Assembly: GCF_006345805.1 (NCBI RefSeq)
Contig: NC_043000.1
Location: 74,276,001 to 74,340,000 of the forward strand
Origin: Octopus sinensis
Lineage: Eukaryota
Reading direction: 5' to 3'
Length of the DNA: 64,000 nt
Each line of letters begins with the position of its first letter. Positions within the stretch are counted from its first letter, which is position 1. The translations under genes and the position numbers were made by a program. The notes below the pieces were generated by a model. The model was given only the letters and a program-made list of their open reading frames with translations. It did no database searches and had not been told where the DNA came from. Of the stretch, positions 7,534 through 63,935 are shown piece after piece.

Positions 7534-8536
7534 ATAAATTCAGGGTGAATACTTGATAAGTATAAGCACCTGTATATGCCAGCTTGTAGCATAGGTGAGA
7601 GGATATATGTATCAAATGAAATAAATTGAAAAACAGGACACAAAGGATGTTGCGGTACATATGTTTCGAGCTTTATAGAACAACTTATTCTTACATCATT
7701 GCATAATCGACATAACAGATAGTTCAAAAGCCCTCTTCAGCCGCATGCAATTGCTACACCAAAGACTTGTATCACATTATGAAAGGTTTGAGAAAAAACA
7801 TTTGGCATTGTTTATAATGGTAGGTAAACTGAGTATCACTGGGAATGTATGTTTGTAAATCTTTATCATCAAATAGGCATACATGGTATTATTAGACTTC
7901 AAAAAAATGGTCTATACTGTTTTCTCAGTCAATATAGAGTGAGTACTGTGTAGATTCCGATTGGGTTTATTCTTCTTGTAGGGGAAGGAATTGGATGTTG
8001 AGAGAAAGAGAAAAAAGAGGAAAGAGGGGAAGGGTAGGAAATGTTAATGAAGTTGGGATCACAAAGAAATATATATATAAATATAATTATAAGGATAATA
8101 AAATATAAAATATAATAAAAAGTAAAGATGTAAAAATATAAAGATATAAAGAACGTCAGGTACAGGGTCATAAATTCTAGAAATGTATTGTGAAAGTGTA
8201 ATAGGTACAAAAAATAAAGAGTAAAAAATAAAAAAACAAAAATAAAGATAAAATGAGATAAAGATAAAAAGATACAAATGTATACAAAGCGGTCGTAAAG
8301 ACAAAAGGATTAAGATAGAGAGATAATGGGTTAAAGTTCTGATGCTGTGGTAAGTGTATGGGGGGGGGAGTGAAATATGATATAGTTGAGGCGAGTGGTC
8401 AGTTTATAGCAGTCCCACATTACATGCTTTAAGCCTATCTTGTATGTGTGTACGTGTGTGTCTACATACTTACCCACTCTCACATATATAAACCTGTCTC
8501 CTGTGACTAGTGATATGTCCGGTTGTAGGTATCATT
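7534..8536 (-). repeat. Pseudo-LTR copy 1 (3' copy) of the Penelope-like element
   Basis: Near-identical to 11385-12386, with only scattered substitutions; the ORF track shows duplicated spurious peptides. Confidence 0.92.
7651..7745 (-). ncRNA. Type-I hammerhead ribozyme in pseudo-LTR
   Basis: Minus strand reads UGCGG-CUGAAGA-GGGCUUU..long loop..AAAGCUC-GAA-ACAUAUGU-A-CCGCA: intact core, stems I and II, palindromic stem III, GUA cleavage triplet. Confidence 0.88.
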
Positions 8537-8559
8537 ACACACCCCATGTCATCCTGAAT

Positions 8560-9620
8560 CAACATATATATATATATATATATATATATATTATATATAT
8601 ATATATATATATATATATACACACACACACACATATATATATACACACACACATATATATATACATACACACACTCACATATTCACACACACACACACAC
8701 ACACACATATATATATATATACACATATGAATATACCTATATATACACGCACATATACACACACACACACATACTACACACACAAGTAAATATATCTATG
8801 CATACACACACACACATATATATATATATACACATACATGTATGCGTCTGTACATGTTCATGCATACACACACCTGCGTACACATACATACATACACCCA
8901 TATATACATATATGTATATGCACATATACATACACACACCTATATGTATATACATATATATATGCATATATACACCCACATACACAAAACATGCACACCC
9001 ACTCATATACATACACATACGTGTATATGTATATATATATATATATATATAAACACATATACATCTGTACATACACACACATATATTCTCACATACACAT
9101 ATATACATGTATATATACACACACACATGCACATATACATACACGTACATACATATGCATACATATACATATCTATATACATGCATACACATACACATGT
9201 GTAGACACCTACATATACACACCCACATATAAATACACTTATATATACCCACACATACACATATCTATACACGTATGTGTATCCCCATAAACTCGTACAA
9301 AAAATACATGAAGGTAAATGTTTATACACATGCACGCACATACGTATACGTACATATGCACACACACATAGGCACATGCATACACACATACATGTGCACA
9401 CATACATACACATACATATGCATTCACACACTTACGCACACACATGCGTACACACAGATACACATATATATACACACATACACACACACACACATATATA
9501 CATGTGTGTGAGTGTGTGTACATTTCCGTTAGTACATACGTCCACACATGCATACATGTAAATCTCGAAAAGTATAAATCTCCATACCTATACACTCGAA
9601 GGTTCATTCATACACACACG
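8560..9620. repeat. Complex (TA)n/(CA)n/(CATA)n microsatellite region inside the Penelope-like element
   Basis: Directly visible low-complexity dinucleotide repeats. Confidence 0.95.
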
Positions 9621-11384
9621 CAAACAAAACCTCACACCTTCTAAATATCTATCTTGAATACGGGGATGTAGCATTTATAATTAATTAACAAGTTAATAAT
9701 GTGTAAGGGTAAAGTAAACGGTAAAAATTAGAAAAAAGTAAAATATTCAGTAAAATTAGAGAAAAGAAAAAGTAAACAAAAAATTTAAAAAAGTAAAACA
9801 AAGATAAAAATAAAAAAGTAAACTAAAAATAAAGGTAAACGTAAAACTAGACTAGTTCGTTTATATGGAGGAGTTTTATAGGTGACGGGTGTTCTAGGCA
9901 GTTCATCATATGATTTTTTGCCGCAAGATATTTTCTGGGGGTACCCAGCACTAGAGAGAGCTTGGTTATAGTGATGTGCGTAATCTATTGTTAGACAATA
10001 ACTTAGTTAATATGTCAGGGACAGCTTGGACTGTGGTGTTAACTATACAGGGTGGGTGATTGGAAGAAGTGTTAATATATCTAGTGCTTTCCTCTGGTTT
10101 CCTATAGGGGTAGTGAAGGCCCTTGTCTAAGTCTAATGTAACATCTAAGAAATCAACTATTTTCGTATTAGTCATAAACTCTAGTTTTAGATTGAAAGAT
10201 TTAAAGAATAGCCTAATCTTTTTCCTAATTCTTTCTAGTTTCCTCTTATTATTAGTGGGGTATATGAAGAGTGCATCATCCCTATATAGACCCCCCCCCT
10301 GAAGATCCTGTACCTCCGAGAATAGCTTCTTAAGCCGGTAGGCCCCGACCAAGTCAGTCACCAGAGCTGAATCGCTCGAGTCCATGGCCACATGGAAGTT
10401 ATCGGGGGTATCGGATCTAGTCCAAAATCTACCGTCAAATTCTATTATAGTTTTCCTAGCTAAGAGTATAATATCAATTTTTTCTCTATCTATGAGCGAA
10501 AGGCTGCGGGCATATATAAGGGATTTATTCAGTAAGATAGGGGATATACTAGCATAGTAATTAGCTATGTCAAACTGTATAAACGAGTAATTAGATCTGT
10601 TAGTAATTGTGTTAAACCACTCCAGAACATCGTCGGTATTAATCCATAAATTGAGTGCATGGGATCACTGTGTCCAGAATAGTTTTGGACATATTAATCT
10701 TACTCCTATGTTTTCTGGGAAACCTTTTTTATGGTCTTTGATGCTAATTTTTGGTTCCTGAGGTTTAAGCGGTTCAGTCCTATCTAGTAGATCTAGTTTA
10801 GCCATTACTTCCTTTATTTTTTTGTTGATTTCCTTTAGGTTTTCAGCAGATGTAGTCTTATATTTTTTACTTAGTTCTTTCATGATGAGTAATTTGTAAT
10901 TATTGTAGTCTAATTTATACCAATTGCCGGTTTTATCAGCATGTACAATTAGACTATCCTCATTCCTAAGTGAAGTTAAGAAGTCTTTTAAACTATTCAG
11001 GTGGGTGTTTGAAATGGTCCTATGTTTTCTAATTTTGATATTGCTAATAAAGTCGATTAAGTCCTCGAAATTTTCCAATGCGTAATTTGGAGGCGGGTTT
11101 CTTCTACTTTAAAAAATTTTTTTATGTATCATTTCATCCCAGTTACGGTTAGAGTTGCATTTTTCTTTGTCGTCAAAATGGTAGGCCGCCCACCTAATTC
11201 TTCTAATGAAATCCGTAGTCCTGTGGATAAGGGTCGTCATGTATCGGTGTGAAGTAGTATGTCCTTCGGAGAGAAATTGGTATTAATCCTTTGTATCATT
11301 ATTTTTTTGTGTTTATCAAGTACTAAAGGTTGTCGAGGTTATATGGGATCCAATCCAATTGACAACATAGGTTAGGTAGGTACA

Positions 11385-61837: not shown

Positions 61838-62005
61838 ATCATCATCATCCTCACCATCATCGTTTAATGTCCACTTTCCATGCTAGTGTGGGCTGGACGA
61901 TTTTGACTGGCGAACCAGATGGCTGCACCATGCTCCAATCTTGATCTGGCAGAGTTTCTACAGCTGGATGCCTTTCCTAACACCAACCACTCCGCGAGTG
62001 TAGTG
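61838..62005 (-). mobile_element. RTE-type 3' tail / tail-derived SINE fragment (similar pieces at about 35200-35445 and 45880-46045)
   Basis: Matches 4140-4303 (gttaggaagggcatccagctgtagaaac...gcatggaaa...ttaaacgatg). Confidence 0.7.
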
Positions 62006-63345
62006 ATAATAACTAGATTTTGCAAATTTATAACATATATTCCTGTTCCATTATCAAAACTTATCAATAATAATAAAATAAAATAAGTAATAAGAAAAAG
62101 CAACTGAACAAGATGCTGGTGAGGCTTAATGGCTAAACTCAGAGATGCATTTAAAATGTTAATACTACTGTTGAGATTGTCAATACATATGTAAATTAAG
62201 AGAGTGATGTAATGATGTAAATCAATTAAAACTAATAAAAAAATAACTCAGTTATCACTACACAACTTCATCTCATTCTCAGTTAGCAAAAATGTGGGAA
62301 AATTTACTATATATTACACACACACACTCTCTCTCTCTCTCTTTGAAGGACACCAACAATTTTTTATTTTATTTTAAAATCATTGCAAGCATGACTGTGT
62401 AGTAAGAAGCTTGCTTCCCAAACACATGGTTCAGGGTTCAATCTCATTATGTGACATCTTGGGCAAGTGTCTTTTACTATAGTGTTGGAGATGTCCGGTT
62501 TACTTCCACTGCCTAGTATCTTAGGAAAATGTCTTTGAAGGTTCACCAAAGCTTTGTGGGTGGATTTGGTAGATGGAAATTGAAAGAAGCTTGTTGTGTG
62601 TGTGTGTAATGCCATAGACTGAGCTGAACATCACCATAAAACATTTTGTGTAAATGACAAATGCTCAAAAGCATCAAAATTCTATATTGCTTGACTAGAT
62701 TTAGTCAGCACTGGCAGATGGCACTACTGTGTCATGAGATTACACTGCAGTCATGAGCAGCAGAATGCCAAATGGAAAATTAGCTAATATATACACAGCC
62801 TGCTAGCTTTTCACAACACTAGCTGTTGGCCAGTATTAGTCAATATAAGTTTAACTGATTTTCTGTCTGGTATTCAGTGCTCGAAATCACACGAAACAGA
62901 TGTGTGTGCATGCATGTGTTTCTGCACCTCCTCATTTTGATATTGTGTAACACTTGTGAATAAGTGACACTGTCATACAAGTGGTATCATTTATTTCCAT
63001 TCTTCCATGAAGACATATCCAGTCATGGGAAAATATTACCTTGCTTAGAAACAAGTGAGGTTTGGTGACAGGAAGGACATCTGGCCAAAGAAAATTTGTC
63101 TCAATGAATTCTGTTTGATCTATACAAGTAAGCAAGTAGTTGCTAGAAATGATGCTTGTGCTAGTGGTGACAATGATGACATCCTCTCCTCCTTCTCCTC
63201 CTCAATTTCTCTCTTAGGGTACATACCACTTTTATATATTTTTCTTTATTTTAAATAATTGGAATTGAACCTGAAACTGTGTAGTTGCCAAACAATGTTC
63301 TTAGCTATACTGCTCCTTTTATGTCTAAATTTTTTTATTATTATT

Positions 63346-63935
63346 TAAAGTAATGACTTTTTGCCAACATAATGTGGCAGTCCCAGGATGGGACAAATGT
63401 TACTGTTTAGTCTCAGGAAACATCATTTTCAGCTGGTTTTACAACACAAAAAATTCTGTATCCTTATATTTTCAGCACAACTTTGTAACCCTGAACCAGT
63501 TTCTGGGCTATTGCCCTTTATCAGCTTGGTTGACTAGGTGTCACTACTGAACTGCTGTCGAAAATATATAGATTTCAAAGTGATACACAGTCACTGATCT
63601 ACAAAATAGAAATATTATTTCTAAATCTCTCAAAGAGAGATATACAGTAACAGCACCATAAAGTAATGACTTTTTGCCAACACAATGCAGCTATCCCAGG
63701 ATGGAATGAATGTTACTGTTATTTAGCCCCAGGAAACACCTCCACCCACCACAACCTCATATCCACAGACCGGTTTCTGGGTTTTGCCCTTTGTCAGCAT
63801 GAAGTAGCTTGGTTGGCTGGATGTCACTACTGAACTACTGTAAAAAAAAATAGAGAGATTTCAAAGTGATACACTGTTACTGATCTACACAATAGAAATA
63901 TTATTATTTCTAAATCTCTCACAGAAAGATATACA
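63346..63935 (-). repeat. Diverged tandem duplication of a ~310 bp unit, each unit with a decayed hammerhead motif
   Basis: Both units start taaagtaatgactttttgccaaca (63346, 63658). Minus-strand motif cugaYaa-aggg..ccca-gaa-acYggu in each. Confidence 0.7.

Follow-up and report, generated by a model that had tools for sequence, protein, structure and literature searches.

Probable remains of several independent Penelope-like elements with type-I hammerhead sequences in a 64-kb stretch of the Octopus sinensis genome

Background

What kind of element would leave ten hammerhead ribozyme motifs, with differing stems, within one short stretch of an octopus genome? The question is raised by 64,000 nucleotides of Octopus sinensis DNA (contig NC_043000.1, positions 74,276,001 to 74,340,000 of the forward strand), the whole of which is referred to here as the window and numbered from its first letter. 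The window consists of animal DNA rich in AT and in microsatellites, and it abounds in remains of retroelements and DNA transposons. An initial annotation, made from the letters alone, had listed ten hammerhead cores in it, and motifs as described are present at all ten coordinates (7651..63803). We consider it very probable that several Penelope-like elements (PLEs), independent of one another and now broken, have left these motifs as type-I hammerhead sequences of their terminal repeats, and that their active ancestors likely cut the element RNA, mostly as dimers paired through the palindromic stem III. The copies in the window are most likely fossils. Such a finding is expected, as the literature already describes PLE hammerheads with a palindromic stem III in many animals and in one Hydra element of an octopus; the window adds unannotated examples missed by Rfam and variants with a long stem II.

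Hammerhead motifs within the window

The ten sites were sorted into six families and are referred to as A1 and A2, B1 to B3, C, D, E, F1 and F2. A strict type-I descriptor, in which palindromes were not required, found four sites in the window, at 7656 (A1), 18755 (B1), 26736 (B2) and 29151 (B3). Stem III is palindromic in all four, in agreement with the annotated minimal type-I hammerheads of PLE type. On 100 block-wise dinucleotide shuffles the same descriptor gave a mean of 0.26 sites, with a mean of 0.02 palindromic ones, and four sites were never reached. A relaxed type-I search had been proposed as a check. Run on the window, a relaxed scorer placed six of the ten sites between 24.6 and 32.7 (the strict four together with 11507, A2, and 26256, C) and gave no additional strong hammerhead site, while 30 shuffles held a mean of 0.03 sites at a score of at least 24. 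Because their scores are far above those of shuffles, the six sites are taken to be real, and by their sequence they would be intact or nearly intact type-I hammerheads. The claim of ten cores holds to that extent, but not for the four decayed ones, which are plausible as hammerheads with none above chance when taken alone. The damaged site at 63762 (F2) received a relaxed score of 13.3, where shuffles gave a mean of 0.73 sites at 12 or more, and the three at 55753 (E), 57499 (D) and 63489 (F1) were not returned by the scorer.

A complete core (C/U-UGA-N-G/A-A, then GAAA and U-H, with a 3-8 pair) is present in A1, A2, B1, B2, B3 and C, and is lacking in D, E, F1 and F2. Stems I, II and III are arranged around the core, with both ends in stem I, in the four strict sites, and the relaxed scorer locates weak points in the stems of the other two: one broken stem I pair in A2 and a weak stem II base in C. 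As for the damaged motifs, E lacks the nucleotide at the cleavage site and is 3 nt shorter than its inverted sister piece (55357-55447). In D, A9 has become G and no stem I adjoins the core. Both F motifs have C3 opposite A8, and stem III of F1 (ACUGGU) is not palindromic.

Rfam returned no hammerhead family at E ≤1 in the window, nor at E ≤10 in 55340-55900; its 74 output rows for the window were nearly all microRNA and small nucleolar RNA models lying on microsatellites. Relaxed descriptors were likewise required for the minimal PLE hammerheads described in PMC4209133. Monomer folding energies were no better than those of shuffles for eight of the nine sites folded (z -0.46 to 0.53), the ninth being 57499 (z -2.2).

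The ten sites come from about seven insertions, with 7651 and 11502 lying in the two pseudo-long terminal repeats (pLTRs) of one element and 26729 and 29144 in the two arms of one palindrome. When the 3' regions of the six families were aligned pairwise, none of the 15 pairs scored above all 200 shuffles, the closest being C-D (3/200) and A-C (6/200), and the description of about six unrelated families can be retained. The idea of one system at the level of the locus cannot, since these are independent insertions, mostly at (TA)n. Relative to the host gene with an exon in the window, five insertions are on the minus strand, one is on the plus strand and one on both, numbers too small for a bias to be read. 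The hammerheads lie 55-260 nt from the 3' end of their element, and families A, B, C and D terminate at TA-rich DNA.

Coding remains and terminal repeats of families A and B

The hammerheads had been described as not shown by the open reading frame (ORF) track; in three families they sit directly on PLE coding remains, namely a reverse transcriptase (RT) only in A, RT and GIY-YIG endonuclease in B, and the C-terminus of a GIY-YIG domain in E. PLE layouts are found in the same three: direct pLTRs in A, a palindrome with a one-sided extension in B and an inverted piece in E.

Family A (7534-12386) lies on the minus strand. Its 3' pLTR (7534..8536) ends at (TA)n and is 98% identical over 1003 nt to the 5' pLTR (11385..12386), which begins at (TA)n and runs into the ORF. 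Between them lie a 3' region (8537..9840), in which a T-rich stretch gives way to degenerate (TG/TA)n over about 1.1 kb, and a broken RT ORF (9999..11243) with stops and frameshifts, in which RIRWAA, ADKT, GLYRDD and SNHPP motifs can be recognized. Hammerhead A1 (7651..7745) has a 5-bp stem I, a CUGAAGA core, a 66-nt stem II domain and the stem III ACAUAUGU; its predicted cut falls after GUA at 7656 and its relaxed score is 32.7. In A2 (11502..11596), which has the broken stem I pair, the cut is predicted at 11507 and the score is 26.7. The two cores are on the same strand, 3851 nt apart in one element.

The RT of family A is 40% identical to protein P0002 over 438 aa (E 8e-92) and has 1186 longer relatives at E ≤0.001; the best are 35-46% identical, and RWK and DKT motifs of Hydra type are present. 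This copy showed no endonuclease part. What defines the Hydra clade of PLEs is set out in section 11 of Craig et al. 2021 (PMC8557442); of these features family A has the RWK-like motif (RIRWAA), DKT in place of DKG (ADKT), (TA)n at both ends and a hammerhead. It is like the Hydra-clade elements described there, Hydra-1_oBim included, in the RWK-like, DKT and GLYRDD motifs and in (TA)n insertion, but unlike them in its 1-kb pLTRs, its 1.1-kb degenerate microsatellite 3' region and the lack of an endonuclease part. In the files of that paper Hydra hammerheads, again including Hydra-1_oBim, have a near-palindromic stem III of 8-10 nt and cut after GUA or GUU. The family A hammerhead resembles the Hydra rows of its File S2 in the CUGAAGA core, the 8-nt stem III and the GUA cut, yet differs from that of Hydra-1_oBim in all stems, and the 66-nt stem II domain of A1 is longer than any loop II in those rows (3-10 nt).

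Two further pieces of similar origin were noted in the window. The C-terminus of a second Hydra-type endonuclease is found at 22348-22509 (minus strand, E 1.6e-4), followed on its 3' side, to about 21600, by T-rich and degenerate TG/TA DNA, a 3' arrangement like that of family A; it may be that degenerate microsatellites are spread by Hydra 3' regions. At 15509-15605 (plus strand) the end of the family A ORF recurs as a 97-nt piece, with 98% identity, inside a Pif1/Helitron-like remnant (14646-16300).

Family B is represented by three copies, none of them full length. Copy 1 (18604..20584, minus strand) encodes RT, thumb, zinc linker and GIY-YIG, and has its 3' end at (TA)n. Its hammerhead, B1 (18748..18787), has a 7-bp stem I, a UUGAAAA core with a U3-A8 pair, a 2-bp stem II and the stem III ACCGGU, with the cut predicted after GUC at 18755. 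The other two copies make up a palindrome of 2.77 kb (26557..29324), in which a 5'-truncated copy on the plus strand (ORF 27846-29006) has an inverted 5'-truncated copy at its 5' end. The arms are 96.8% identical over 2750 nt, (TA)n is present on both sides, and about 40 extra nt are found on the inverted arm only. Hammerheads B2 (26729..26768, minus strand) and B3 (29144..29183, plus strand) both have U3-A8, ACCGGU and GUA, and the core of B3 lies 145 nt past the ORF stop. The RVT_1 (E 7.8e-6) and GIY-YIG (E 0.0018) matches of the family are both below the Pfam cut-off, and 262 relatives have RT and GIY-YIG domains. The linker between RT and endonuclease reads CGRSNCATC, in keeping with the CX2-5CxxC of the Neptune clade. 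Family B is like Neptune-clade PLEs in its RT, CX4CxxC linker, C-terminal GIY-YIG, microsatellite insertion, inverted 5'-truncated partner and one-end extension, a placement made by motifs and not by a tree, and Nematis elements also have the linker. A palindrome layout with an inverted truncated partner is drawn in Fig. 2 of Craig et al. (PMC8557442).

With two or three copies per family, little stem covariation can be followed. B1 and B3, whose elements are 89% identical, differ at two of 40 hammerhead positions, both free (loop II and position 17). Scanning genome contigs for relatives gave four loci, of which L007 was dropped (E 1e-4 over 47 residues); the remaining three are distant relatives of family B (L004, L005 and L006, 30-38% aa identity) on short contigs of one bacterial metagenome-assembled genome, likely as contamination from an animal or host. 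L005 keeps the fold with other stems, having a U3-A8 hammerhead directly behind the ORF and another palindrome (ACAUGU). Related-locus scans of viral contigs gave none for either alignment.

Beside family B, a 100-N assembly gap inside a (TA)n run (20699-20798) truncates copy 1. An RT fragment of another Neptune-like subfamily, with about 70% DNA identity to family B, is found at 16572-17315 (plus strand), cut at (TA)n, and no hammerhead was found with it.

Palindromic stem III and the role of cleavage

The stem III palindromes pair with themselves, and between families only those of B and F pair with each other; they could serve as a natural set for testing dimer specificity. The self-duplex of ACGU, from family E, has an energy of -1.7. 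For A1 and B1 the minimum free energy (MFE) structure of the homodimer is the two-core hammerhead fold. The A1 monomer reaches -16.9 kcal/mol in the hammerhead fold against an MFE of -17.4 kcal/mol, and the corresponding fold of the B1 monomer stands at +3.5 kcal/mol. Stem III had been called dimer-type throughout. Dimer folding is indeed favoured in silico for A1 and B1, but monomers with the 8-nt palindromes of A and C can also pair, forming a 2-bp stem III, and the term is therefore firm only for palindromes of 4 and 6 nt.

In the tables of PMC4209133, U3-A8 covariation, an unpaired base before stem II and a palindromic loop 3 are recorded for PLE hammerheads, the U3-A8 covariation being reported there for schistosome PLEs. 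The window hammerheads are like these minimal ones in type-I topology, in the short palindromic stem III and in the U3-A8 variant, and family E also shares the unpaired base between position 9 and stem II and the G10.1-C11.1 pair. As in published PLE cases, many unrelated families occur in one genome, mostly as solo copies of truncated elements. Stem II is where they depart, with domains of 66 nt in A, 43 nt in C and about 54 nt in D, far beyond the length of published helices, and with two pairs only in B.

A course of events can be proposed on this basis. PLEs targeting (TA)n would insert into each other's tracts, gathering the families seen here. In a transcript spanning two pLTRs, the two cores might swap stem III strands, and the paired cores would then cut after GUA, GUC or GUU, possibly helped by the PLE protein. 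Single copies with palindromes of 4 or 6 nt would stay uncut and serve as template. Two same-strand cores in such an arrangement are found only in family A, whose ORF is broken, and in the damaged pair F.

Several observations weigh against the interpretation as hammerhead-bearing PLE ends whose ancestors cut their RNA. The homodimer MFE structure is not a hammerhead fold for C, D, E and F, and is only partly so for A2 and B3. Among the distant relatives of family B, L004 shows no hammerhead in its short stretch of contig past the ORF (160 nt), and L006 has a doubtful hammerhead-like variant, read by eye, with A3 opposite U8 and the palindrome AGCGCU. The pLTRs of family A show no extra conservation of the ribozyme: of their 20 differences in 1003 nt, three fall within the 95-nt ribozyme and one of these breaks a stem I pair, so there is no sign of selection since insertion. 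No PLE coding adjoins C, D or F (tblastn with 240 Hydra- and Neptune-type proteins). Finally, the clade names used here are candidate assignments that rest on motifs and not on a tree.

An unlikely account, though one to be taken seriously, is that the hammerhead folds were kept mainly as protein-binding or vestigial structure and that cleavage has little or no part in transposition. Work on an anole (lizard) PLE (Frangieh et al. 2024, PMC11167929) describes hammerhead mutants without effect on insertion in vitro, cutting by the hammerhead only in the presence of protein, and no RNA-seq reads ending at the cut site. Minimal hammerheads have low activity and cut weakly even as dimers according to the account in PMC4209133, and Naiads are described as having spread without hammerheads (PMC8557442). 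Set against this, the unrelated families of the window and L005 alike retain the catalytic positions, a 3-8 pair that is C-G or U-A, and a base other than G at position 17, which fits selection on chemistry. Ancestral cleavage of element RNA remains the explanation that we prefer.

Families C, D and F

Three families are ORF-less. Family C (25997..26420, minus strand) is a PLE-type 3' end of about 420 nt between two (TA)n runs. Hammerhead C (26249..26326) has a 7-bp stem I, a CUGAUGA core, a 43-nt stem II domain with the weak base and the stem III ACAAUUGU; the cut is predicted after GUU at 26256, and the site was missed by the strict descriptor while reaching a relaxed score of 29.8. Since the style of this hammerhead matches the Hydra rows of File S2, family C is likely Hydra-like. 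Family D (57312..57720, minus strand) is a repeated end beside TA-rich DNA, with the damaged hammerhead-like motif at 57499-57580 (stem III ACGCGU) and partial copies at 57783-58110. Family F (63346..63939, minus strand) is a head-to-tail pair of units, each about 300 nt long and 70% identical to the other. Both contain one damaged hammerhead (63489-63530 and 63762-63803), and the two cores lie 273 nt apart on the same strand. As they carry no ORF, we infer a PLE origin for C, D and F, which would be solo or non-autonomous PLE ends.

Sequencing-run evidence was obtained by comparing contigs of four of 24 runs with the window; the joints and depths given here and below are examples only, and the depths for run X1 are summed contig depths, not copy numbers. 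The X1 depth is 145,166 in the D bin and 17,974 in the F bin, against 32-53 for unique contigs.

We consider it rather unlikely that D and F are chance look-alikes in ordinary repeats. The two do not rise above shuffles, their core and stem I defects fit such an origin, and among the contig variants listed for them none falls at a core position. On the other hand, both core boxes are kept in D and F, with a stem II ending right before GAA, and D and F2 have a palindrome before a valid H17. Both families lie in repeated DNA, as the X1 depths indicate, and the D end is common to other (TA)n-flanked pieces that also resemble the C end. Decayed ends of PLE type are the preferred reading for D and F as well.

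Short two-ended pieces between TA-rich runs, with one end C-like and the other D-like, are located at 20903-21031 and 57783-58110. A TTCACCC-like motif is found 15-45 nt before (TA)n at 7549, 20922, 26016 and 26588 (minus strand) and at 21012 (plus strand), and also near the end of the published consensus of the coral element Hydra-1_Amil. As a shared end motif, (T)TCACCC/AACCCT before (TA)n was unconvincing and was set aside, with 5 of 73 loose matches before (TA)4 against a background of 3.2%.

Family E and a possible PLE-driven SINE

On the plus strand family E is ordered as an inverted 3' piece, a frameshifted peptide, a tRNA-like segment, a hammerhead and an end near 55845. The inverted piece (55337..55447, minus strand) contains the hammerhead's 3' half, together with some 28 nt of extension that are optional, and is damaged at two core positions other than those of hammerhead E. 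The GIY-YIG C-terminus (55444..55606, plus strand) is frameshifted and has a stop, and from its motifs we take it to be of Penelope/Poseidon type. It is followed by the tRNA-like segment (55633..55695, plus strand), with the 3' half of an A box and a B box at 55674-55683, and by hammerhead E (55753..55795, plus strand), of minimal type, with CUGAUGA, an unpaired A, a 5-bp stem II and the palindrome ACGU.

A word-based protein search with the 44-aa frame of family E gave no match. HMMER returned seven proteins for the frame, six of which were kept; the seventh, P0241 (35%), is repetitive and was taken to be unrelated. Among named proteins the peptide is closest to P0242, a predicted protein of Octopus vulgaris (80-83%), to the end of which it has 80% identity over 30 aa; proteins of Argonauta hians rank high for two other peptides of the window. 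Residues 20-120 of P0242 resemble the GIY-YIG domains of PLE-type proteins (Atlas: features 0.95, structure TM 0.81). Pfam finds no GIY-YIG in P0242, P0244 or P0247, so the assignment for family E rests on Atlas and motifs, and the family B profile scores P0242 at 4.5 bits only. P0242 opens with a translation of the inverted E 3' end (87% over 15 aa; window 55366-55410), and this is joined to the C-terminus of the endonuclease. P0242 therefore reads as a second locus with the same build of inverted end and truncated ORF and with other breakpoints, and because it begins with the inverted E 3' end, that end behaves as the own end of this PLE.

The pattern used for the tRNA boxes (a B box and half an A box) was written from the E site itself, and its chance figure therefore does not count as a test. 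The tRNA-like segment was compared with the heads of another SINE-like family (SINE, short interspersed nuclear element) of the window, which has a tRNA-type head and five copies (13740-14117, 32257-32616, 38978-39363, 54593-54998 and 62392-62608). For three of the five heads no shuffle in 1000 was as good, and for the other two 1/1000 and 11/1000 were. ARAGORN found no tRNA gene in the window and none on the E head down to -ps60, and Rfam had no tRNA match in the window or in 55340-55900.

Contigs of the sequencing runs bear on how the parts are joined. One contig from another E copy (run X12, record 9) bridges the ORF end and the A and B boxes (55511-55698), with 16 other letters and 14 gap positions relative to the window. 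At two joints, among those listed, the inverted 3' piece (at 55421 and 55447) passes straight into the head without an ORF, and the letters there complete the A box. Loose contig ends also occur at 55365 and at 55337, which suggests two alternative ends separated by 28 nt and recalls the PLE tail described by Frangieh et al. (PMC11167929). The summed X1 depth reaches 1.35 million where the E head and hammerhead lie and 166,243 at one position of the ORF (unique contigs, about 45), figures that give no copy number. No poly-A or simple-repeat tail follows 55845.

Taken together, these observations suggest that family E is a PLE whose pLTR contains a segment derived from a tRNA, accompanied by a far more numerous short derivative, and that the short form is a very abundant, PLE-mobilised SINE bearing a hammerhead. 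A fuller scenario, offered tentatively and falling a little short of probable, is that a Penelope/Poseidon element captured a tRNA-derived RNA polymerase III (Pol III) promoter in its pLTR upstream of the hammerhead and spawned a SINE of about 220 nt, made up of tRNA head, hammerhead and PLE tail, which was copied by the PLE to tens of thousands of sites.

It is distinctly less credible that the window copy arose when an ordinary tRNA SINE happened once to be joined to a PLE fragment, on its far side, and that the hammerhead SINE is moved by a long interspersed nuclear element (LINE) and not by a PLE. Nested insertion could join the ORF end to the tRNA-like part, which is weak by ARAGORN and Rfam, and there is one copy in the window. 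Yet the X12 contig carries the same junction in another copy, P0242 joins the inverted E 3' end to the endonuclease C-terminus at another locus, and the end at 55845 lacks the tail of poly-A or simple repeats.

Octopus genomes are rich in SINEs, with 893 of 900 recently active SINE families unclassified according to PMC13282606, in the main text of which the words ribozyme and hammerhead do not occur. SINEs with a tRNA head and a hammerhead are known from schistosomes (PMC2770079, PMC6765202). Family E is like Sm-alpha and Sj-alpha, as they are described in these two papers, in having a putative tRNA-derived promoter of Pol III type followed by a hammerhead motif of type I, and apparently in very high abundance. 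It is unlike them in its attachment to a PLE endonuclease C-terminus, its inverted 5' partners in the style of PLEs and its minimal ACGU hammerhead, and no tandem E array is present in the window. Our literature search turned up no PLE-linked tRNA SINE and no hammerhead in an octopus SINE; Repbase or older papers may already cover family E. If the scenario is true, parent and SINE in one genome would be a direct case of a SINE with a PLE partner and a model for the origin of elements of Sm-alpha type, with stem III palindromes acting as family-specific pairing codes. A major octopus SINE driven by a PLE and equipped with a ribozyme would likewise be a new pairing of SINE and partner, linking PLE pLTRs, Sm-alpha-like SINEs and retrozymes.

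A pattern scan with the E hammerhead gave three metagenome loci (L001 and L003 being alike around the match) that share only a motif of 33-40 nt; upstream of this E-type hammerhead they have neither a tRNA-like part nor an ORF, and all three lack a base between ACGU and stem I. Viral contigs gave no hit. In L001 (701-736) and L002 (701-736) stem II is the same as in family E, and the missing base may mark a natural variant. A weak GIY-YIG-like frame with stops at 18184-18387 (minus strand, E 0.74 to P0242) is possibly a PLE remnant.

Family F and retrozymes

The initial annotation had also proposed a retrozyme system, and no classical retrozyme array was found in the window. Retrozymes are recognized by at least two consecutive units of 150-450 nt, each with a complete type-I hammerhead (the requirement for two complete hammerheads being given in bioRxiv 10.64898/2026.07.22.740005). 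Family F is like the non-LTR retrozymes described in that preprint and in PMC7229834 in its head-to-tail units, its type-I-like motif in each unit and its lack of an ORF, but it differs in having only two units, at 70% likeness, with C3 opposite A8 in both cores. That the locus is a working PLE or retrozyme system, now making unit-length or circular RNAs from multimeric transcripts, is very improbable, since the same-strand core pairs of families A and F, and the circular RNAs that tandem hammerhead repeats are described as yielding in coral, mussel and axolotl (PMC7229834), are outweighed by PLE ORFs that are all broken or 5'-truncated, by the defects of both F units, by the lack of any tandem array with a 150-450-nt period in the window and by palindromes that for most families do not pair mutually.

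Other features of the window

An exon of 173 nt from a host gene is found at 60847-61019 (plus strand), with AG before it, GTGAGT after it and an open frame. A contig of run X20 (3768 nt) matches it exactly over 174 nt in its interior, and there is a weak HEAT-repeat hint (E 0.07). Sites D, E and F likely lie in introns of this gene. A high-copy element of mariner type occupies 59262-60537, with a 180-aa transposase frame (PF01359, E 3.5e-25) and an X1 depth above 600,000.

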